Shown: positions 1 through 16,888 of the stretch, in pieces | Position numbering within the stretch: position 1 is the first letter of the stretch | How the letters are laid out: every line of letters starts with the position of its first letter | From: Rhodospirillaceae bacterium | Lineage (GTDB): Bacteria; Pseudomonadota; Alphaproteobacteria; GCA-2731375 | Direction: 5' to 3' | Length of the DNA: 64,000 nucleotides | NCBI GenBank assembly: GCA_018660265.1 | Contig: JABJKS010000057.1 | Location: forward strand, 66,506-130,505 | Translations under genes and position numbers: made by a program | Notes under the pieces: model-generated | What the model was told of the DNA's origin: nothing | Database searches by the model: none | What the model saw: the letters and a program-made list of their open reading frames with translations, nothing else

Positions 1-53
1 GGCTCAAAGGCATGCGCCGCCTGCACGAACTCTACGGCTGAGAACGCGCAAAA

Positions 54-1286
54 TCAGGCCGCCAGAGCCAGGCATTCCCGTGCGATCAGGGAGGACAGGC
101 GCGACATTCCATCCTTGATCACGGCGACGGGGCACGTCGCGAACGACAGGCGCAGGGTGTTCTGGCCACCGCCTAGGGCGTGGAAGGCCGCACCTGGAAC
201 AAAGGCCAGGTTTTCCTCCCGCAAGGCCTTTTCCAGCAATCCTTTGGCATCCATGCCGTCTGGCAGGGTTAACCAGACGAACATGCCACCCTTGGGTTCT
301 GTGAAATGCACGCCTTGGGGTAGACATTGCCGCAGGGTCGCCACCATGGCATTGCGGCGTTCGCCATAGGTTTCACGCAGGGTTATGACGTGATCATCCA
401 GGATCGTCGTCGCCAGCTCGTGCGCGAGGATCTGGTTGTAGGTCGCCGTATGCAGATCCGAGGCTTGCTTCAATAGAACCAGGCGCTCCAACAAGGTCGC
501 AGGCGCGATGGTCCAGCCGACCCGCAGGCCGGGCATCATGGTCTTTGACACGGTGCCTAGTTGGATCACCAGGCCGCCATTCTGCCACCGATCCGATCCC
601 AAAAATTGACCTTCCAGCTCCAGCAGTGAGAGAGGCGGCGGTGCGTCGTAGTACAGGGTCCGATAGGCCACATCCTCCAGGATCGTCACGTCATATTGGT
701 GGGCCAGTTTAATAATCCGCTGGCGGCGCTGCGCCGAAATGCTGATACCGCCGGGATTTTGGAAATCCGGAATGGTATAGAGCATGCGCGCGCCGTCCTT
801 AAAGGCGGCCTCCAGACTGTCCATGACCAGGCCATCAGCGTCGGTTTCGACGGTCAGATAACGGGGTCGACGGGTGCCAAATACCTGCAATGCACCAAGA
901 TAAGTTGGATTGGCAACTGCCATGGGCGCGTCCGCATTGATCAAAGCCATGGCCAGCAGCATCAAGGATTGCTGCGCCCCGTTGGTGACCAGGACGTTGT
1001 CCGTCGACAGGGTTATTTCTGGCGTGGAATGACGCGCGGCGATCCATTCGCGAAGGGGCTGATAACCCTCCGTCTGGGAATATTGCATGGCCCGGGCATA
1101 TCGCGCCGGTTCAGCCTCCAGCCTACGGGAAATCCGAGCCACTTCAGGCATGGGAAATAGATCCGGATCAGGAATACCACCTGCGAACGACAAAATTCCC
1201 GGTTCACCGAGGATCTTGAGCAATTCACGAATTTCGGATGCCTCAATGGCACCGGCATCAGAGGAAAACTTGGCTTCCCAGCTCAT
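54..1286 (-). CDS. PLP-dependent aminotransferase (class I/II fold)
   Basis: 410-aa ORF with typical aminotransferase class I/II sequence features (PLP-lysine region ...GTVSKTMMPGLRVGW...). It lies on the same strand as the downstream amino-acid-catabolic genes. Confidence 0.8.
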   Translation of the reverse strand: MSWEAKFSSDAGAIEASEIRELLKILGEPGILSFAGGIPDPDLFPMPEVARISRRLEAEPARYARAMQYSQTEGYQPLREWIAARHSTPEITLSTDNVLVTNGAQQSLMLLAMALINADAPMAVANPTYLGALQVFGTRRPRYLTVETDADGLVMDSLEAAFKDGARMLYTIPDFQNPGGISISAQRRQRIIKLAHQYDVTILEDVAYRTLYYDAPPPLSLLELEGQFLGSDRWQNGGLVIQLGTVSKTMMPGLRVGWTIAPATLLERLVLLKQASDLHTATYNQILAHELATTILDDHVITLRETYGERRNAMVATLRQCLPQGVHFTEPKGGMFVWLTLPDGMDAKGLLEKALREENLAFVPGAAFHALGGGQNTLRLSFATCPVAVIKDGMSRLSSLIARECLALAA

Positions 1287-1302
1287 AGCGACACGCTTTC
1301 AT

Positions 1303-1337
1303 TAAATTAATGTCAGTAATACTGACCTTAATTTAAT
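1303..1337. promoter_or_regulatory. 35-bp AT-rich near-perfect palindrome (TTAAATTAATGTCAGTA-A-TACTGACcTTAATTTAA) just upstream of the aminotransferase start; candidate operator
   Basis: Read directly from the sequence. The arms match at 16 of 17 positions and the element is centred about 30 bp upstream of the ATG at 1286. Confidence 0.4.
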
Positions 1338-1374
1338 TACGTGTCAAGCGCTCCTAACAACACAAAGTTACAAT

Positions 1375-1602
1375 TTAGGCCCTCGGATCAGTTTGCCGGG
1401 CATGGCGACACCACAGATCAGGCCACAATGGGCCATCCCAGATGGGAAACAGCGCTGAATCCAGGATACTACCGGCGAACAAAATAATCCCCGGATCGGT
1501 CAGAGTTTCAAACAATTCATGGATTTCAGACGCCTTGATCACACCGGCATCAACAGAGGAATTGGTTTCCCTACTCATGACAACACGTCTTCGGCAACTC
1601 AA
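1375..1602 (-). pseudogene. Gene remnants: about 47 codons of a paralogous aminotransferase N-terminus (1440-1602) joined to the last ~12 codons of a D-aminoacylase paralog (1375-1440)
   Basis: The fragment SVDAGVIKASEIHELFETLTDPGIILFAGSILD parallels SSDAGAIEASEIRELLKILGEPGILSFAGGIPD of the intact gene at 54-1286. A 29-bp exact match (ggccctcggatcagtttgccgggcatggc) to the 3' end of the amidohydrolase gene at 2572-2600 encodes AMPGKLIRGP. Confidence 0.55.
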
Positions 1603-1809
1603 AGTCCGCTATTTTTACCTTTATTTCGGACGATGTCTATTTTGCCGAGGTTGTGGATAGTATTCCCAATCAACAATTCGCAGCAATGGAGATGGATAAA
1701 AAGGTTAATATTTTGTTAAATTTGGATTGACGGTCCACCACAAAAAAAATTAACCTTATTTGGTGAGGGCATTGAACGAACCTTTTTAAACAAAATGGGA
1801 GAGCATAAA

Positions 1810-2343
1810 ATGAAATTTGTTACAAAAATGGGGACAACTTTTGCCCTTATCATGGGCTTAGTATTCACTGTGATGAACACATCGCAAGCTGCCGTTGTTG
1901 TAGATCCTGGCACCGGCGGTTCCTACACCTTCTTCTTCGACGCGCTGGGACCAATCACCGGGATCTCTGGCTTCCCTGGTGAGACTACATGGTCGATGAC
2001 AGTAGGTAGCACTTCAAGCCTAAGCTTTGCGACTGCTACCGATTGCTGCACAGTTGGCGATGAATTTGGTCTGATTTTTGATGGTGCCGCTGTTGCCTGG
2101 GATACAGAAACAACAACAGGGGGCGGCTTTTTTGAAGGCAGCATGTCCGATCTGCTGTTGACAGCAGGGACCCATACATTTGGATTAGTCCTGACTGCGG
2201 CTTGTTGTTCTTCCGGCGGTGCTTTCATGGAGTTTGGTACTGCAACTGCTGTTCCTGTTCCAGCGGCTTTACCCCTGTTTGCGGGTGGTCTTGGTTTCCT
2301 AGGTTTCATGGGCTGGCGTAAAAAGCGGGTTGCAGCCGCTTAG
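1810..2343 (+). CDS. Secreted VPLPA-CTERM (PEP-CTERM-like) sorting-domain protein
   Basis: N-terminal signal peptide (MKFVTKMGTTFALIMGLVFTVMNTSQA). C-terminal VPVPAALPLFAGGLGFLGFMGWRKKR tail, i.e. a VPxPA motif, a hydrophobic helix and a basic cluster. An RBS GGGAGAG precedes the ATG at 1810, and the local GC is lower than the flanks. Confidence 0.7.
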   Translation: MKFVTKMGTTFALIMGLVFTVMNTSQAAVVVDPGTGGSYTFFFDALGPITGISGFPGETTWSMTVGSTSSLSFATATDCCTVGDEFGLIFDGAAVAWDTETTTGGGFFEGSMSDLLLTAGTHTFGLVLTAACCSSGGAFMEFGTATAVPVPAALPLFAGGLGFLGFMGWRKKRVAAA

Positions 2344-2479
2344 AGTATGTTTACTTTAAACATGCCCAGATACTTGCGATTCTTAAGAAAAGAGTGATTG
2401 GACCAATTACTTGGACCACAAGAGTGAATTCATTTAAATTGAAATTTCTCTAGTTCATCAACAAAATGCAAGACAAATT

Positions 2480-2505
2480 AAAACGGCCCTTCGGGGCCGT
2501 TTTTC
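2480..2505. terminator. Bidirectional rho-independent terminator hairpin (AAAACGGCCC-TTCG-GGGCCGTTTTT) between convergent genes
   Basis: Perfect 10-bp stem with a 4-nt loop, flanked by A-run and T-run on either side. It lies between the + gene ending at 2343 and the - gene ending at 2559. Confidence 0.6.
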
Positions 2506-2558
2506 TTTCCTGGCAAACATGCCCCATCTTCCAAGTTTATACGGGGGAAACGCGACGC

Positions 2559-4286
2559 TTAATTCGCTTGCGGCCCTCGGATCAGTTTGCCGGGCATGGC
2601 ACCCGTCGCTACTCCATCGCGATAAGTCACTTCACCACCCGACACAGTGGCCAGATAGCCATCAACTTCCTGGACCAACCGGCGGCCATTGGCGGGCAGA
2701 TCATCGATCATATAGGGCGGTTTCAGACGCATATCGTCTAAATTCATAACGTTCAGGTCCGCCTTCAGACCTTCTGCCAACAGGCCGCGATCTTTCAGGC
2801 CATAGCTAAGGGCTGTGTCGCGAGTTTGGTATTTGACCGCCTGCTCCAACCCAAGGCGCGGGCCACGGGTACGATCACGGACCCAGTGGGTCATCAGATA
2901 GCTGGGCATGGCGGCATCACAAATCAGGCCGCAATGGGCCCCGCCGTCAGAGAGGCTGAGGAGCGTATCCTCGTTCTCCAACATCTCCCGCAATACTTCA
3001 AAATCGCCATTGCTATAGCTGATCAGGGGGTAATACAGCATCTCCTTACCGTCCCGGCTCAACAGATAGTCCAGACAGACCTCTTTCCCCGAACGCCCTT
3101 CGCGGCTGGCAATGGCGGCGATGGATTTGTCCTGGGTCGGTTCGTAATCAAGGGGGTCACCAAGGGGAAACATCTTGTCATAGGACGTCGCCACCGTGGG
3201 GTTAAAGCGGCCTGTGAAGCCGCTTTTCTCTGACAGCAACGCGGCCCGGTTTTCGGGCGTACTCAACGCAGCCACACGTTCGGCAAGGGGCAGATGGGCA
3301 AAGCGTTTATAGGTAGGATGCTCCATGAATGGATGCAGGGAACTTTGCAGCCCCAACAACAAACCTGCGGGACGTCCCGCCACCAATGCACGGACATCGG
3401 CACCCGTGCCCCGTGCGGCGCGGGTCAACTTCAGTATCTCGCGCCATTCATCGGGCACCGTGTCGGCTTGGCCCAGGATGAAGGTCACCAACAAGCCGGT
3501 ATCTTTGGCCAGGCGGACCATCCAGTCCATGTCTTCACCGAATTTGCCGCCCATGCCGCCGAGGCCGAAATCCGTGGCCAATTCGAACACCCCGTGGCCG
3601 GCCCGTTTCATGCCCTGGCCGATGGCCATCAATTCGTCCGCGCCCGCAAAGGTTCCAGGTACCGGTTCCCCATCGAGGGAACGATGCAGCATGGTGCGCG
3701 ATGTTGAAAAGCCCAAAGCGCCCGCTTTCAGCCCCTGTTCAACAATATCTGCCATACCGGCCATATCGTCGGGGTTGGCGGGTTGATTGGTCGCCCCACG
3801 ATCTCCCATGACATAGGTGCGAATGGCCCCATGCGGGACTTGCGTGCCCACATCCAGCGAACGTGGCATGGCATCAAGGGCATCAAGATATTCGGGAAAG
3901 CTTTCCCAATCCCATTTGATCCCCGCTGCCAGGGCGGAACCGGGAATATCTTCCACGCCTTCCATCAGGCGGATGAGCTGGTCGTGGGCGTCAGGTGCGA
4001 CCGGTGCGAAGCCGACGCCGCAGTTGCCCATGATCGCCGTCGTCACACCGTGCCAGCCGGACGGTGTGAGGTGCGGATCCCAGGTTACCTGGCCATCATA
4101 GTGGGTGTGGATATCAACCCAGCCAGGTGCGACAACGGCACCATCGGCATCGATTTCTTCCCGTGCCGCGCCGGCCGTGCCGCCAACCTGGCTTAACCGG
4201 TCGCCATCAATGGCCACATCACCCGTGGCTTTTTCGGCACCCGAGCCGTCAACAATGACGCCACCGCGTATGACCAGATCATGCAT
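2559..4286 (-). CDS. N-acyl-D-amino-acid deacylase (D-aminoacylase) family amidohydrolase
   Basis: 575 aa. N-terminus MHDLVIRGGVIVDGSG...APGWVDIHTHYDGQ is typical of the D-aminoacylase branch of the metal-dependent amidohydrolase superfamily. Confidence 0.85.
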   Translation of the reverse strand: MHDLVIRGGVIVDGSGAEKATGDVAIDGDRLSQVGGTAGAAREEIDADGAVVAPGWVDIHTHYDGQVTWDPHLTPSGWHGVTTAIMGNCGVGFAPVAPDAHDQLIRLMEGVEDIPGSALAAGIKWDWESFPEYLDALDAMPRSLDVGTQVPHGAIRTYVMGDRGATNQPANPDDMAGMADIVEQGLKAGALGFSTSRTMLHRSLDGEPVPGTFAGADELMAIGQGMKRAGHGVFELATDFGLGGMGGKFGEDMDWMVRLAKDTGLLVTFILGQADTVPDEWREILKLTRAARGTGADVRALVAGRPAGLLLGLQSSLHPFMEHPTYKRFAHLPLAERVAALSTPENRAALLSEKSGFTGRFNPTVATSYDKMFPLGDPLDYEPTQDKSIAAIASREGRSGKEVCLDYLLSRDGKEMLYYPLISYSNGDFEVLREMLENEDTLLSLSDGGAHCGLICDAAMPSYLMTHWVRDRTRGPRLGLEQAVKYQTRDTALSYGLKDRGLLAEGLKADLNVMNLDDMRLKPPYMIDDLPANGRRLVQEVDGYLATVSGGEVTYRDGVATGAMPGKLIRGPQAN

Positions 4287-4307
4287 GTTTTGCTTCCTTC
4301 CCCAGAT

Positions 4308-5231
4308 TTAAAGATGGCTCAAATATTGCGCCACGTAGTCCGAACCGACCTCGTCCTTATAGGCTGCCATCAACTTCGCTGTTATAGGCCCCGGCACGGC
4401 ACCATCACCAATGGGCGCACCGTTAAAGCTGCGCATGGGGCAAAGACATAGGGAGGTCGAGGTAATAAAGCCCTCGTCCGCCGTGGCCGCATCAAAGGGA
4501 GAGAGATCATCCTCAATAATTTCAAGCCCCAAGCCCCGGCACAGATCCATACTGACCGCGCGGCTGACACCGGCCAGCACATACTGCGCCTTTGGTGTGC
4601 GCACCTTGCCGTCATGGATCAGAAAAATATTGCTGCCGCTGCCTTCTGTGAGGAAGCCGCGCGTATCGAGCAATAGGGGCCAGGCATCGGGGGCTGATTT
4701 TTGCGTTTCCAGACCGGCAACGATCAGGTTCAGATAATTGTGGGTCTTGGCCGCTGGGTTCAGTGCCTCGGGCGGCGTGCGCCGGGTCGCGGGCACGACG
4801 ATATCAATACCATCGCGAAACAGCGGCGCCCGCTTCGCCAACGGCAAGGGCACACATGTTACGATGACCGTTGGCCCCGCATCACCACCCGGGCCGTCTG
4901 GATAGTTCGGCCCCCGGGTGACCCGTAGGTAGACCCAGTAGTCTTCATCCGGGCCCAGCAAATGCAAATTGCGTTCGATGACTTCTTCCGAGATCGCGCA
5001 AAATTCCGCCACGTTCAGGCCTGGATCAATCTGCACATAACGCAGGGAACGAAACAATCGCTCCACATGCTCCTCAAGGCGATAGATCTTGCCGGCAAAG
5101 GTTCGCGCCGTATCGAACACCGCATCGCCATAAATGAAGCCACGGTCGGAAATAGAAATGGTGGCACGGGATTCCGGCACGTAGTCGCCGTTGATATAGA
5201 CCACCCGCTCGTTCAATAGACTTTCGTTCAT
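4308..5231 (-). CDS. Class IV aminotransferase (D-amino-acid / branched-chain aminotransferase fold)
   Basis: Fold-type IV signature. The start is chosen at MNESLL, which has an AGGAG RBS 7 nt upstream. There is a 4-bp ATGA overlap with the upstream gene. Confidence 0.8.
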   Translation of the reverse strand: MNESLLNERVVYINGDYVPESRATISISDRGFIYGDAVFDTARTFAGKIYRLEEHVERLFRSLRYVQIDPGLNVAEFCAISEEVIERNLHLLGPDEDYWVYLRVTRGPNYPDGPGGDAGPTVIVTCVPLPLAKRAPLFRDGIDIVVPATRRTPPEALNPAAKTHNYLNLIVAGLETQKSAPDAWPLLLDTRGFLTEGSGSNIFLIHDGKVRTPKAQYVLAGVSRAVSMDLCRGLGLEIIEDDLSPFDAATADEGFITSTSLCLCPMRSFNGAPIGDGAVPGPITAKLMAAYKDEVGSDYVAQYLSHL

Positions 5232-6568
5232 TCCGCTGCTCCTAACGTATTCTGTTTGGACGCGAATGCTTCCAACCCACCTTTGAATTCGGTCTGCCCG
5301 AAGATATCCGGCAACAGGCTTTTCAACCATTCACGGTCCATATCCACGCCATTGGCTTTGAGGTAAATTTCACCCTCATCCAGAACCATGTCCCAGTCGT
5401 CCTGCATCCGATAGCGTTTGGAAATATCATCGTGCGGCTGTTGGCCCAGGGCCTGGACCAACAAATCTGTCCAGTTCACGACCTGGAATTTTCCGCCCGC
5501 CTCCAATCCCGATAACTGGCCGTGGCAACCATGATAAAGTGAAACGAGAATATCCACATCCTCTGCCTCCGCCCGCGCCAGGGTCTCCGCCCGCGCCGCC
5601 GCCTTTAAGTCCGGTGATCGATCCGCCCCGGATCCGCCGCAGGTATAGCCGGGCTCCGACACCGTCCCGACCAAGGTCAGGCCCGGCACCGACGACAACA
5701 TCCTGGCGACGTTTTCGCCGACCTTTTCCATGCCGTCGTGGGTGTGGAGGAGGACGCGTTTGTTAACCGGCTGGATGAATTTCTCCGCCAACCCTTCGGC
5801 CCGCGCGACAAGATAATTGGTCACATGATCAAAATCAAAACTGGCCTGACGGAAGCCGGCAATCGTCTCGCCCAGATGCAGTACACATGACGGGCACCAG
5901 CTTAGGACTTCCTTGGGCTTGAAGCCGGCAAAGCGATCAATGGTCCCGTCCACGACCCGCTCGCCTGCGGCCTGGTCACCCTCCCATTTCGATTGAATGA
6001 TGCCGCAGCAGGCACCGGGCCCACCAACCACTTCATAGTCGGTTTCCAGGGCATCCAAAATCGCCATGGCATTGAACAACAAATGCGGGGTACGGATCGG
6101 GTTACAGCCGGTATAAAAAACAACGTCCGCCGGGTGGGCCCGGGGATTGCGCAACAGCTTGTCAAACTCCGGCGGGGCCAGTTGCATGGCCGCCATGATG
6201 CGGATCGAACGGGACATCTTGCGGAACAATTGCGGCGTCGGGCTGTCCTGTTCCGCCTCCACCGTATTGGCCAGCATCAACATTCGCCGCGGGTTCACAC
6301 CTTCGGGACAGCTGGGAATACAAAGGCCGCAGCCGTTGCATTGACTACTCCAAGATTGCGCCGCGCCCGCCAATGGCGTGCCATCGCGCAAAAGACCCAA
6401 AACACCGCCTATGCCGCCAATGACGCCAGGTTCCTCCCCCGCCTTCACATCCGTATAGGGCGTGACCGGGCAGACCTCGACACATTTGCCGCATGCGGTA
6501 CAATCCGCAATCAGGGCTGCACGCTCCTGATCCAGAAAATCGTTCAACGATTGTTTTGCTAATCCCAT
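5228..6568 (-). CDS. Fe-S oxidoreductase with two 4Fe-4S ferredoxin motifs and CCG cysteine-rich domains (GlcF/GlpC/HdrD-like)
   Basis: CTACGKCVEVCP and CNGCGLCIPSCP motifs, followed by CCG-type Cys clusters. Start placed at MGLAKQ; the start is uncertain. Confidence 0.7.
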   Translation of the reverse strand: MGLAKQSLNDFLDQERAALIADCTACGKCVEVCPVTPYTDVKAGEEPGVIGGIGGVLGLLRDGTPLAGAAQSWSSQCNGCGLCIPSCPEGVNPRRMLMLANTVEAEQDSPTPQLFRKMSRSIRIMAAMQLAPPEFDKLLRNPRAHPADVVFYTGCNPIRTPHLLFNAMAILDALETDYEVVGGPGACCGIIQSKWEGDQAAGERVVDGTIDRFAGFKPKEVLSWCPSCVLHLGETIAGFRQASFDFDHVTNYLVARAEGLAEKFIQPVNKRVLLHTHDGMEKVGENVARMLSSVPGLTLVGTVSEPGYTCGGSGADRSPDLKAAARAETLARAEAEDVDILVSLYHGCHGQLSGLEAGGKFQVVNWTDLLVQALGQQPHDDISKRYRMQDDWDMVLDEGEIYLKANGVDMDREWLKSLLPDIFGQTEFKGGLEAFASKQNTLGAAE

Positions 6569-6599: not shown

Positions 6600-6965
6600 T
6601 CAAGTCCGCTTCGACGCCTTCTTGTTCTTTGCCGCATCAACGCGAAGGGCAGCGTCTGCTGCGCCACGGGCCCAAGTCAGGAATTCATCCTCGTTATCCA
6701 GCACATCGACAGGCACCGTCCAATAACTGCCCAGACTGGCCCGCTTGCCCTTGCGCTCATAACTAAAGGCCTCCATCCCCTCGGCCTCATAGTCGGGACG
6801 GTTCACATCATCGACCTTGAAATGCAGGACGTCCCGCAAGATCAAAGCAAACATCAATCCCCGATAAAAAATCCCCAAACCACCGAACATGCGGCGGGAG
6901 GTGATATGCCCCAAGGGCGCGACAAGATCCTCAATATAGGCACGGTATTCCGGTGATACGGCCAT
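6600..6965 (-). CDS. TfoX/Sxy N-terminal-domain protein
   Basis: 121 aa. The RMFGGLGIFYRGLMFALI motif is characteristic of TfoX_N. Confidence 0.6.
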   Translation of the reverse strand: MAVSPEYRAYIEDLVAPLGHITSRRMFGGLGIFYRGLMFALILRDVLHFKVDDVNRPDYEAEGMEAFSYERKGKRASLGSYWTVPVDVLDNEDEFLTWARGAADAALRVDAAKNKKASKRT

Positions 6966-6967
6966 GG

Positions 6968-7837
6968 CTACTTATACAGCGGCACCTGATCCTTGGGTTT
7001 GCCAATATGTTCGTAGAGGTCGGGGCGGCGCTGGTCCATCAGTGGGTAGCGGCGTTTAACCTCGTCGGCAAAACTCAGGTCGATTTCTGTTGTGATGATG
7101 CCTTCATCGTCCGAGGCGGTGGCGACAATTGTGCCCCAGGGGTCCACCACCATGGAACGGCCTACATAACCGACGCCCGAAGATGGATCGACACCGTATT
7201 GGCCAGATGCCACGACCCAGCACTGGTTTTCCGTGGCCCGGGCGCGCAGGAAGAATTCCCAATGATCAAAACGCGGGCTGAGGAAGGCGGAAGCGCAGAC
7301 GATGACCTCCGCGCCCTTCAGGGCCAGCTCGCGATAGACCTCCGGAAAACGCAAGTCGGAACAGACCGACAGACCAATCTTGGCGGGCGCGGTATCGAAC
7401 ACCGGTAATTCCGTGCCCGCCTTGACATGATCGGACTCCCGAATGCCCGCCTTGATATCGGGGCGGTCGGGGGCATCGAACAAATGGGTCTTCCAGTATT
7501 TGCCCATGATCTCCCCCTTAGGATTGATGAAAGGAGAGGAGTTGTAATGCTGGTTCCCCTCCTTTTCATACATGGAGCCGACAATATACATGCCGTACTT
7601 TTGGGCTTTCTCCGCCAACAGATCCGATGTTGGTCCAGGAATAGTCTCGGCAATATCGAGGTAAGCATCATCAGAGGAAAAGCCCGCACCGGTCCAAATT
7701 TCGGGCAGCACCACAAGTTCCGATCCCCGCCGTCCCGCCACATCCAGAAAACCCATCATCTTTTCAACAACGGCATCTTTTTCTCCATCCACCGCTGTAA
7801 TCTGAATGGCGGAAACGGTCATGGGTCTTGCAGTCAT
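6968..7837 (-). CDS. Carbon-nitrogen hydrolase (nitrilase superfamily)
   Basis: Catalytic E/K/C context with ...GLSVCSDLRFPE... Start placed at MTARPMTV, which has an AGGAG RBS. The exact start may be off by 1 nt. Confidence 0.8.
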   Translation of the reverse strand: MTARPMTVSAIQITAVDGEKDAVVEKMMGFLDVAGRRGSELVVLPEIWTGAGFSSDDAYLDIAETIPGPTSDLLAEKAQKYGMYIVGSMYEKEGNQHYNSSPFINPKGEIMGKYWKTHLFDAPDRPDIKAGIRESDHVKAGTELPVFDTAPAKIGLSVCSDLRFPEVYRELALKGAEVIVCASAFLSPRFDHWEFFLRARATENQCWVVASGQYGVDPSSGVGYVGRSMVVDPWGTIVATASDDEGIITTEIDLSFADEVKRRYPLMDQRRPDLYEHIGKPKDQVPLYK

Positions 7838-15184: not shown

Positions 15185-16888
15185 GTGACATATGATTTGG
15201 TAGTACGCAATGGCATGGTCGTCGATGGTTCGGGCATGCCCCGTTATCGTGCCGACGTCGGCGTCAAGGACGGCAAGATTGCCCATATCGGGCGCATAGC
15301 AAACGGCGCGGGCGAAAGCATCGATGCCGAGGGGCATGTGGTCAGCCCCGGCTTTGTCGATGGGCATACCCATATGGACGCGCAGATTTTTTGGGATCCC
15401 TTGGGAAGTTGTTCCAGCTATCACGGTGTTACATCCGTTGTGATGGGCAATTGCGGTTTTACCCTGGCACCGTGCAGACAGGCAGAAGCGGACTTGGTCT
15501 TTCGCAATTTGGAACGGGCCGAGGATATTTCCCGTGACGCCATGTTGGCTGGCATCGATTGGAACTGGGAGACTTTTCCCGAATATCTCGACGTGCTGGA
15601 CGGACTGCCCAAAGGCATCAACTATGCAGGCTATATGGGGCATTCCGCCCTGCGCACCTATGTCATGGGGGAACGGGCCTTTTCCGAAGCCGCCAGCGAG
15701 GATGAGTTGGCGAAAATGGCCCACATGGTCAAGGAGGCTGTGCAGGCCGGGGCCATCGGCTTTTCCTCCTCCCGCAGTATGAACCATGAGACATCCGACA
15801 ACCGGCCCGTCGCCTCACGTGCCGGTGACTGGAACGAGCTGTCGACCATGGTCCGCGCCATGGGAGAGATCAACGCAGGTATCCTGGAAATGGCGGGCGA
15901 GCCTACGGGCGAAGTCCATGACCGGGCCGAGACCTATTTCAATGGCCTGAAAGACCTGTCGGTCGAAACAGGCCGCCCGATCACGTTCGGTATGTTTTCC
16001 ACCCGCAAGAAACCAGGTGCATGGCGGCCCTGGTTCGATGTCATCAACAAAGCGGCGGCGGAGGGCGGTCGGTTATTCGTGCAGGTTCACAGCCGGGCCC
16101 TGAACGTGTTGTTGTCGTACGGCACGGCCATGCCTTTTGATAAGCGGGAACTGTGGCGGGATATCCGCGCCCTGCCCCTGGCAGAACAAAAGGCCGCCTT
16201 CCAGAATTCAGAGACCAAAGCAAAATTGATCGAAATCGCCAACCGCCCCCATGAGGGCCCCAAAGCCATCGGCACGGAAATCCGCCCGCCCGATTGGGAT
16301 TGGCTGTTCCTGATGGACACGGTTGAAGGCCCCCACCAAACAATGGCAGAGGTGGCCCGGCAACGAGGTGTCTCGGAGGTCGAGGCGATGATCGACCTCG
16401 GTGTCGAAAGCGACATGAAGGTCTTCTTCCGCCAACCCGTCGCCAACGAGGATCAGGACCAGGCCCTGGAAATGATGCGGCATCCCCGCTCCGTTGTGAC
16501 TTTTTCGGATTCCGGTGCCCATGTCAGCCAGATCATGGACAGCTCCCTCCAGACCCATTTGTTCAGCCATTGGGTACGGGAAAAGCAGGCCTTCACGTTG
16601 GAGGAAGCTGTGCGTCTGGTCACCTATGACACGGCGACCCATTGGGGCTTTCATGATCGCGGTTTGATCCGTGAAGGCATGGCGGCTGATCTGGTGGTCT
16701 TTGACCCCGACACGATTGGGGCCCGTATGCCCGAAGTGGTCACTGATCTGCCCGCATCCGCCAAACGCCTGAAACAAACCGCCAATGGCATCCGCGCCAC
16801 GGTGGTCAACGGCCAGGTTCTGCTACGCGACAATGAACCCACAGGTGCGACACCTGGTCGGCTTATCCGGGGACCGCTCGCGAACTGA
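15185..16888 (+). CDS. N-acyl-D-amino-acid deacylase family amidohydrolase (paralog of the gene at 2559-4286)
   Basis: YDLVVRNGMVVDGSG...SPGFVDGHTHMDAQ. Ends PGRLIRGPLAN, compared with PGKLIRGPQAN in the paralog. GTG start with a GGGGAG RBS. Confidence 0.85.
   Translation: MTYDLVVRNGMVVDGSGMPRYRADVGVKDGKIAHIGRIANGAGESIDAEGHVVSPGFVDGHTHMDAQIFWDPLGSCSSYHGVTSVVMGNCGFTLAPCRQAEADLVFRNLERAEDISRDAMLAGIDWNWETFPEYLDVLDGLPKGINYAGYMGHSALRTYVMGERAFSEAASEDELAKMAHMVKEAVQAGAIGFSSSRSMNHETSDNRPVASRAGDWNELSTMVRAMGEINAGILEMAGEPTGEVHDRAETYFNGLKDLSVETGRPITFGMFSTRKKPGAWRPWFDVINKAAAEGGRLFVQVHSRALNVLLSYGTAMPFDKRELWRDIRALPLAEQKAAFQNSETKAKLIEIANRPHEGPKAIGTEIRPPDWDWLFLMDTVEGPHQTMAEVARQRGVSEVEAMIDLGVESDMKVFFRQPVANEDQDQALEMMRHPRSVVTFSDSGAHVSQIMDSSLQTHLFSHWVREKQAFTLEEAVRLVTYDTATHWGFHDRGLIREGMAADLVVFDPDTIGARMPEVVTDLPASAKRLKQTANGIRATVVNGQVLLRDNEPTGATPGRLIRGPLAN

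Follow-up and report, generated by a model that had tools for sequence, protein, structure and literature searches.

Between an intact aminotransferase gene (AT) and an intact amidohydrolase gene (DA) of an uncultured marine Rhodospirillaceae bacterium lies a segment of about 260 bp (1378–1637) that we infer to be a non-functional rearrangement scar. All coordinates refer to the window, the whole 64-kb stretch analysed (positions 66,506 to 130,505 of contig JABJKS010000057.1, assembly GCA_018660265.1). The scar holds the start of a divergent aminotransferase gene (the relic is termed AT′, and the gene it would descend from AT2), joined to two short pieces of amidohydrolase sequence (together DA′). 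It sits precisely at the breakpoint of synteny with relatives. The features of the locus are as follows.

54–1286, minus strand: intact class I/II pyridoxal phosphate-dependent aminotransferase (AT), an open reading frame (ORF) of 410 amino acids (aa) matching PF00155 at E = 1e-31
1301–1347, minus strand: AT promoter and putative operator, with a 37-bp palindrome at 1301–1337 and a TTGACA −35 box at 1342–1347, just upstream of the palindrome
1348–1377: spacer that separates the AT promoter from the DA′ relic, matching only itself in the window and the loci compared
1375–1578, minus strand: 67-aa ORF across the scar, hypothetical protein HOK21_11360, in the AT′ frame and running out of frame into DA′
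1378–1406, minus strand: DA′ patch 2, a 29-mer encoding AMPGKLIRGP as at the DA C-terminus; left-hand copy (copy 1) of the direct repeat
1407–1434, minus strand: DA′ patch 1, an internal DA piece, AHCGLICGV, from about 2913–2940 (24/28 identity)
1435–1440: AT′/DA′ junction, a few bases read off the alignments
1441–1578, minus strand: AT′ relic, comprising the first 46 codons of a diverged aminotransferase homolog, from alignment and tblastn
1579–1637, minus strand: decayed AT2 promoter and operator, with TAGACA, a broken palindrome and ungapped 30/48 homology to the AT upstream region
1810–2343, plus strand: PEP-CTERM/VPLPA-CTERM-like secreted protein gene, a 177-aa ORF with a signal peptide and C-terminal VPVPAALPLFAGGLGFLGFMGWRKKR
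2480–2503: bidirectional intrinsic terminator common to the convergent DA and PEP-CTERM genes, with a 10-bp stem and T runs on both strands
2559–4286, minus strand: intact Amidohydro_3 amidohydrolase (DA), predicted to be N-acyl-D-amino-acid deacylase-like, 575 aa (PF07969, E = 1e-51)

The larger part of the scar is a truncated aminotransferase gene. Positions 1442–1626 align without gaps to 1150–1334 at 67.6% identity (score 65, versus 10 ± 1.2 for shuffled sequences), spanning AT codons 1–46 and 48 bp upstream of the start with no indels in 185 bp. A tblastn search with AT recovers the same stretch at 1578–1441 (56.5% aa identity, E = 4e-9). The initial annotation had claimed an aminotransferase N-terminal fragment here, and had named a lack of significant similarity beyond an exact 29-bp repeat as the result that would undo its account; the fragment is present, at 46 codons, and its alignment score lies far above that of the shuffles. 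Upstream of the coding remnant a promoter-like site, TAGACA-17-AAAAAT, is found at 1639–1611, and 48–60 bp of control region are kept in all. Because AT′ has operator homology besides coding homology, it represents the complete start of a gene, control region included. For these upstream regions the ungapped pairwise alignment was used, as a MAFFT alignment misplaced AT′.

The resident AT is not a closer match to AT′ than AT genes elsewhere are. Its coding identity is 68.8% to the resident gene and 69.6, 69.6, 66.7 and 65.9% to the orthologs L095, L098, L100 and L111, respectively. Four parsimony-informative sites unite AT with L111 and one unites AT with AT′, and AT′ falls outside in a neighbour-joining tree. 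The 43 differences from AT over 138 coding sites are distributed 10/9/24 over the three codon positions (chi-square p = 0.007, a third-position bias), and third-position divergence (24/46) is on par with that of functional orthologs (19–23/46). Therefore, most of the divergence of AT′ arose under purifying selection. The best reading of these comparisons is that AT′ derives from a once-functional, diverged AT homolog and was not copied from the resident AT.

The relic nevertheless bears the marks of decay. AT′ carries 11 unique amino-acid changes at sites invariant in four functional homologs, which themselves carry 0–2, and family motifs are lost (IRELLK to IHELFE, FAGGIPDP to FAGSILDS). It thus combines homology to PF00155, truncation to 46 of 410 codons and loss of invariant residues, as a pseudogene relic of that family does. 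Changes seen in AT′ alone fall 5/6/2 over the codon positions, a spread that suggests neutrality; all copies compared are 100% identical, with no variation. Judged by its sequence, AT′ now appears dead. A protein search with the 47-aa AT′ peptide returned the scar ORF only, and no intact AT2.

Next to AT′ the scar continues into amidohydrolase sequence. The string GGCCCTCGGATCAGTTTGCCGGGCATGGC, 29 nt long, occurs as two exact copies in direct orientation, at 1378–1406 and 2572–2600, 1194 bp apart, and nowhere else in the 64-kb window; by our own estimate, the chance expectation for such exact repeats is ~1e-8. This repeat had been reported in the initial annotation, which also took the right-hand copy for the genuine end of DA, and both statements hold. 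The resident DA tail reads ...GGGCC GCAAGCGAATTAA (GPQAN and stop), and its orthologs end in GPQAA or GPQSV and stop. Since the DA tail is orthologous, 2572–2600 is the native 3′ end and 1378–1406 is a secondary patch. DA homology of the patch stops at the 1377/1378 boundary, where the resident DA instead continues into its tail as the orthologs do. The orthologous tail also rules out an inserted segment as the supplier of a new DA C-terminus.

DA′ is composite. The homology of patch 1 reaches back to 1387, into patch 2, so that 1387–1434 matches internal DA positions 2893–2940 at 85% (41/48, E = 7e-10). DA′ hence joins 28 nt of internal motif to 29 nt from the C-terminus, in frame, with 312 bp (104 codons) missing between them. 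The joint lies where the two homologies overlap, in a 20-mer that DA itself has twice, at 2581–2600 and 2893–2912; its two versions are identical at 16/20 positions, 9 bp of them exact (GCCATGCCC). On the minus strand, the sequence beside the AT relic reads ..AHCGLICGVAMPGKLIRGPKL and stop. It had been described as a D-aminoacylase C-terminal fragment; such a fragment is present, but an internal piece is fused to it. DA is the probable source of both patches (2572–2600 and 2893–2940). Patch 2 matches the resident gene at 29/29 positions, versus 22–25/29 for DA orthologs of 77–83% aa identity, and DA′ as a whole differs from DA at 4/57 positions (2/19 third positions), versus 9–12/57 for the same class of orthologs.

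The two relics are therefore not equally diverged from their intact counterparts: 43/138 for AT′ and AT versus 4/57 for DA′ and DA (Fisher p = 2e-4), and 24/46 versus 2/19 at third positions (p = 0.002). At otherwise invariant sites their decay is similar (13/81 for AT′ versus 3/42 for DA′, p = 0.26), which fits one date of inactivation, and a single event is possible.

The scar ORF, HOK21_11360, was called by gene finders and annotated by NCBI. Its 67 residues match no Pfam or NCBIfam model, and in a search of a 5.8-billion-protein database its sole match was itself. It is probably spurious. An Rfam scan of 1–5000 yielded nothing exceeding noise.

Syntenic comparison, which the initial annotation had proposed, found DA and AT unlinked in all relatives examined. 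The nearest relatives compared reach only 81–84% aa identity for DA or AT. DA orthologs L101–L103 (81–83% identity over all 575 aa) keep the upstream operon, which encodes a thiamine pyrophosphate (TPP) enzyme, CN_hydrolase, TfoX_N, CCG/Fer4, Aminotran_4 and DA itself; downstream of DA lie unrelated genes that differ among relatives. Full-length AT orthologs are found at 72–84% identity, and those at 72–75% lie in a neighbourhood of MerR, old yellow enzyme (OYE), acyl-CoA dehydrogenase (ACAD), AT and LplA. In genome GCA_964344935.1, the AT ortholog (L098) and the DA ortholog (L103) are on different contigs. DA stood beside this AT family in 0/84 DA-anchored loci from other organisms (L001–L080 and L101–L104) and in none of the AT-anchored loci. 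A scan of a genome collection with DA, in which the best of the matches listed was 63% identical, was used for DA-AT adjacency only. The parental DA-AT adjacency is thus not seen in any relative examined.

The control region of AT appears to belong to the gene. The 37-bp palindrome is an inverted repeat with 94% complementarity and a single copy in the 64-kb window. TTGAC and the palindrome are kept upstream of the AT orthologs L095 (about 6945–6990), L098 and L100, all in another gene neighbourhood, and the homology to orthologs upstream of AT ends at the −35 box. The consensus, 37–39 bp long, is a near-perfect palindrome, AATTAAATTAAGGTCAGTAwTACTGACCTTAATTTAATT, and looks like a repressor operator that moves together with the gene. 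L111, the contig of the 84% AT ortholog, has 36 nt of upstream sequence (1–36); only the right arm of the palindrome is visible, and the contig is too short to judge the presence of the scar.

The scar is fixed in the population. Population contigs were drawn from NCBI metagenome-assembled genomes, ENA, JGI and Logan, and the window matches those of the uncultured marine Rhodospirillaceae bacterium at 100% identity, including GCA_018671365.1 JABHHU010000022.1. The source metagenomes come from Saanich Inlet and related samples, with GCA_018671365.1, GCA_018703475.1 and GCA_018665875.1 among their assemblies. Sixteen same-population contigs, each covering part of 1–4400, match the window over all common sequence, with single-base differences in two. 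Each of the 16 includes at least part of the scar and has it in identical form, and several span it whole.

Nor do the repeats behave as the edges of a mobile cassette. The segment from AT to DA, 1287–2558, has a GC content of 45.6%, where the window as a whole has 56% and the flanking genes 59%, and carries the PEP-CTERM-like gene, much as first described. Direct repeats do flank that gene, though they are not the boundaries of its segment: the left one is separated from the PEP-CTERM segment by the AT2 relic and promoter DNA, and the right one by the terminator and the final four codons of DA. One repeat is the native DA 3′ end and the other a scar patch. Recombination between the 29-mers would be expected to leave a deletion junction ACAATTTA+29-mer+ACCCGTCG and a reciprocal amplification junction TCGCTTGC+29-mer+GACACCAC. 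The deletion junction, the one of the two that was searched for, has 0 matches in JGI metagenome contigs, and no variant that has lost or amplified the segment appears among the 16 population contigs over the parts of 1–4400 that they cover. The suggestion that the repeats could still mediate excision thus finds no supporting evidence in these data.

Population heterogeneity was observed elsewhere in the segment. Contig L089 leaves the window sequence at 2302/2303, and L085 and L084 do so at 2449/2450, with the contigs ending soon after. Both departure points are CTAG sites, located within the PEP-CTERM gene's 3′ end or beyond it and not at the repeats. In the L089 variant (1–116) the sorting-signal tail is replaced, giving a 174-aa protein that ends ...GFLAHIIHDRDQL and stop. 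Past the CTAG departure points, the sequence probably represents an alternative allele or else DNA that is mobile or repeated. Comparison of the variant sequence of L089 and L085 (3897–3946) with the window and the loci returned nothing informative, and terminal inverted repeats were not evident.

The PEP-CTERM-like gene itself is an ORFan. Its product scores below the cut-offs of both relevant models (TIGR03370, 17.7 against 25.35; PF07589, 19.7 against 20.7), with VPVPA, a hydrophobic helix and RKKR visible in the tail; it resembles the VPLPA-CTERM/PEP-CTERM family, strict membership being unproven. In a scan of JGI metagenomes, it matched two identical population contigs and otherwise only unrelated sorting-signal sequences, over its last 32–48 residues. 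No copy of the gene follows DA in the relatives' loci, and ORFs of 121 aa and 180 aa found there, considered as homologs, proved unrelated by comparison. The initial annotation had suggested that the gene may have been captured between the repeats; its ORFan status and its absence from relatives would agree with capture, but the repeats do not mark the edges of its segment. The protein is Cys-rich (CC motifs), and its gene occupies the stretch where the GC content of the region is lowest. A 17-bp inverted repeat (1698–1714 and 1744–1760; AAAAAGGTTAATATTTT and AAAAAATTAACCTTATT) in the AT-rich DNA that precedes the gene may be a regulator site.

For DA, no NCBIfam model reached its cut-off, and some homologs are named N-acyl-D-amino-acid deacylase by JGI. 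The DA operon is also present at window positions 4308–5330 and upstream, and in L081. This conserved operon may serve the catabolism of D-amino acids or N-acyl-amino acids; for a metabolic operon to include a TfoX_N protein is unusual. A distant, full-length Amidohydro_3 paralog of DA (36% aa identity) lies on the plus strand at 15191–16888.

We judge it somewhat probable that AT′ is the relic of AT2, truncated by illegitimate recombination, and that the junction was patched with short DA copies. Positions 1441–1637 would be what is left of a second, diverged and once-functional aminotransferase gene with its own operator. One illegitimate-recombination or deletion event would have removed the rest of AT2 and set the relic beside the present AT promoter. 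The joint would then have been filled by two patches from the resident DA, 1.1–1.5 kb off on the same strand, one of 28 nt (internal) and one of 29 nt (C-terminal), joined at the 9-bp microhomology. The patches may have arisen by template switching in repair or replication, or by copying of a 369-bp fragment followed by a 312-bp slippage deletion, which would give the same end product. The exact 29-bp repeat would be a by-product of this patching and not a cassette edge, and both relics would since have decayed neutrally by roughly 7–16%.

Several known systems invite comparison. Bacterial pseudogene relics are alike in being truncated N-terminal fragments that have lost invariant residues, are flanked by intact genes where synteny breaks and are mis-annotated as short ORFs; the scar differs in keeping a decayed promoter and operator and in being fused to two tiny neighbour-gene patches, which is not simple truncation. 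Filler DNA at illegitimate junctions is produced by template switching of the fork stalling and template switching or microhomology-mediated break-induced replication type (FoSTeS/MMBIR), and by RecA-independent slipped misalignment between short repeats. Shared with such filler are same-strand patches of 28–29 nt from nearby, microhomology at their joint and few unassigned bases; template switching is here read back from the end product and would be one route to it.

Certain points weigh against this account. An intact AT2 at this position was not found in any genome examined, and the state before the event is unseen. The comparisons use few sites (138 and 57 nt) with third positions near saturation, and the placement of AT′ in particular rests on few of them. 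The 4/57 differences between DA′ and DA are not significantly below the 9/57 between DA and its 83% ortholog. The DA′ motifs are very conserved, distant DA homologs still matching the C-terminal piece at 24–25/29, and an older DA paralog homogenised by gene conversion is an alternative source of DA′, albeit an unlikely one. Positions 1348–1377 and 1435–1440 have no explained source. Finally, the order of fragments is exactly what a tandem-duplication join point would yield.

That order agrees with the tandem duplication of a DA-AT pair proposed in the initial annotation, whose factual statements on the sequence are all borne out, far beyond chance. Short-junction join points of tandem duplications are known in Salmonella and E. 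coli, and they show the start of the 3′-ward gene followed by the end of the 5′-ward gene. On the minus strand, the locus reads DA, AT′ N-terminus, DA′ 3′ part, 91 bp, AT, with the homology of AT′ to AT extending upstream of the start (30/48), as a single duplication from inside DA to AT codon 46 would leave it if both fragments had been junk from then on and the PEP-CTERM gene had been inserted later between DA and AT′. Here, however, the two relics are unequally diverged (p = 2e-4), AT′ is no nearer to the resident AT than to the orthologs, with AT grouping with L111, and the third-position bias indicates that AT′ mostly evolved under selection. In addition, DA′ does not extend into the native DA tail or the intergenic region, and DA is next to AT in none of the relatives examined. 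The duplication is not borne out by these results, and we consider it improbable. An ancient, intact AT2...DA2 pair (or a DA-AT2-DA2-AT tandem), in which a later deletion joined codon 46 of AT2 directly to where DA2 ends and the identity of DA′ reflects conservation, gene conversion or both, accommodates AT′ as an old once-functional gene. DA homologs of only 51–63% aa identity match the C-terminal motif at 24–25/29, and the distant paralog at 15191–16888 is present in the window. Against it stand the 29/29 match together with 2/19 third-position differences where 9–10 would be expected (binomial p about 4e-4, our calculation), the 312-bp internal gap, which demands an extra event, and the presence of a second DA or AT at this place in none of the relatives examined; the pair is accordingly doubtful, if somewhat less so than the duplication.

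Horizontal replacement is a variant of the patched-truncation account that names the source of AT: DNA from elsewhere that carried the present AT, promoter and operator included, would have entered by homology-facilitated illegitimate recombination, with its anchor inside the 3′ part of AT2 or further on and an illegitimate joint, with filler, at AT2 codon 46. Relatives have AT and its operator among other neighbours, which means that the gene unit has moved, and homology to the orthologs begins exactly at the −35 box. According to the summary given in PMC6382021 of de Vries & Wackernagel 2002, homology-facilitated illegitimate recombination in natural transformation, with short microhomologies, is documented in transformable bacteria, and such a process could account for a diverged homolog having replaced most of AT2, one end of the exchange being illegitimate. 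At the scar, by contrast, no donor, anchor, mosaic boundary or detectable mosaic structure was identified, no mobility genes lie nearby, and the match of the filler is to the resident DA and not to a donor; replacement has a small chance of being right. Far less credible is a scar that is active. It could act through rare RecA-mediated, reversible loss or amplification of the PEP-CTERM gene that re-creates a DA-AT operon, or the chimeric 67-aa ORF with the decayed operator could have been co-opted, either to serve the aminotransferase repressor as a decoy operator or to act as a regulatory leader. The ORF at 1578–1375 is open and called by gene finders, 185 bp of relic are without indels, and contigs of the population differ from one another at the PEP-CTERM 3′ end. 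Direct repeats of 29 bp are near the minimal length for RecA recombination. Yet the ORF has no homolog except itself, family-invariant residues are lost, the palindrome is broken, the recombinant junction is absent from JGI metagenome contigs while the 16 population contigs match the window, and the heterogeneity maps to the CTAG sites 2302 and 2450 and not to the repeats.

Taken together, the locus presents a real but ordinary pseudogene and rearrangement scar, with no bearing on an open biological question and of small practical value. HOK21_11360, the form in which the scar enters metagenome-assembled genomes, is not to be counted as a gene. An exact repeat with a paralog fragment is not by itself a sign of tandem duplication. 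The scar would illustrate, from nature, how a joint can be patched with short stretches copied from a neighbouring gene, and it would record the relocation of an aminotransferase gene unit with a conserved operator, or its replacement of a homolog, in this lineage.

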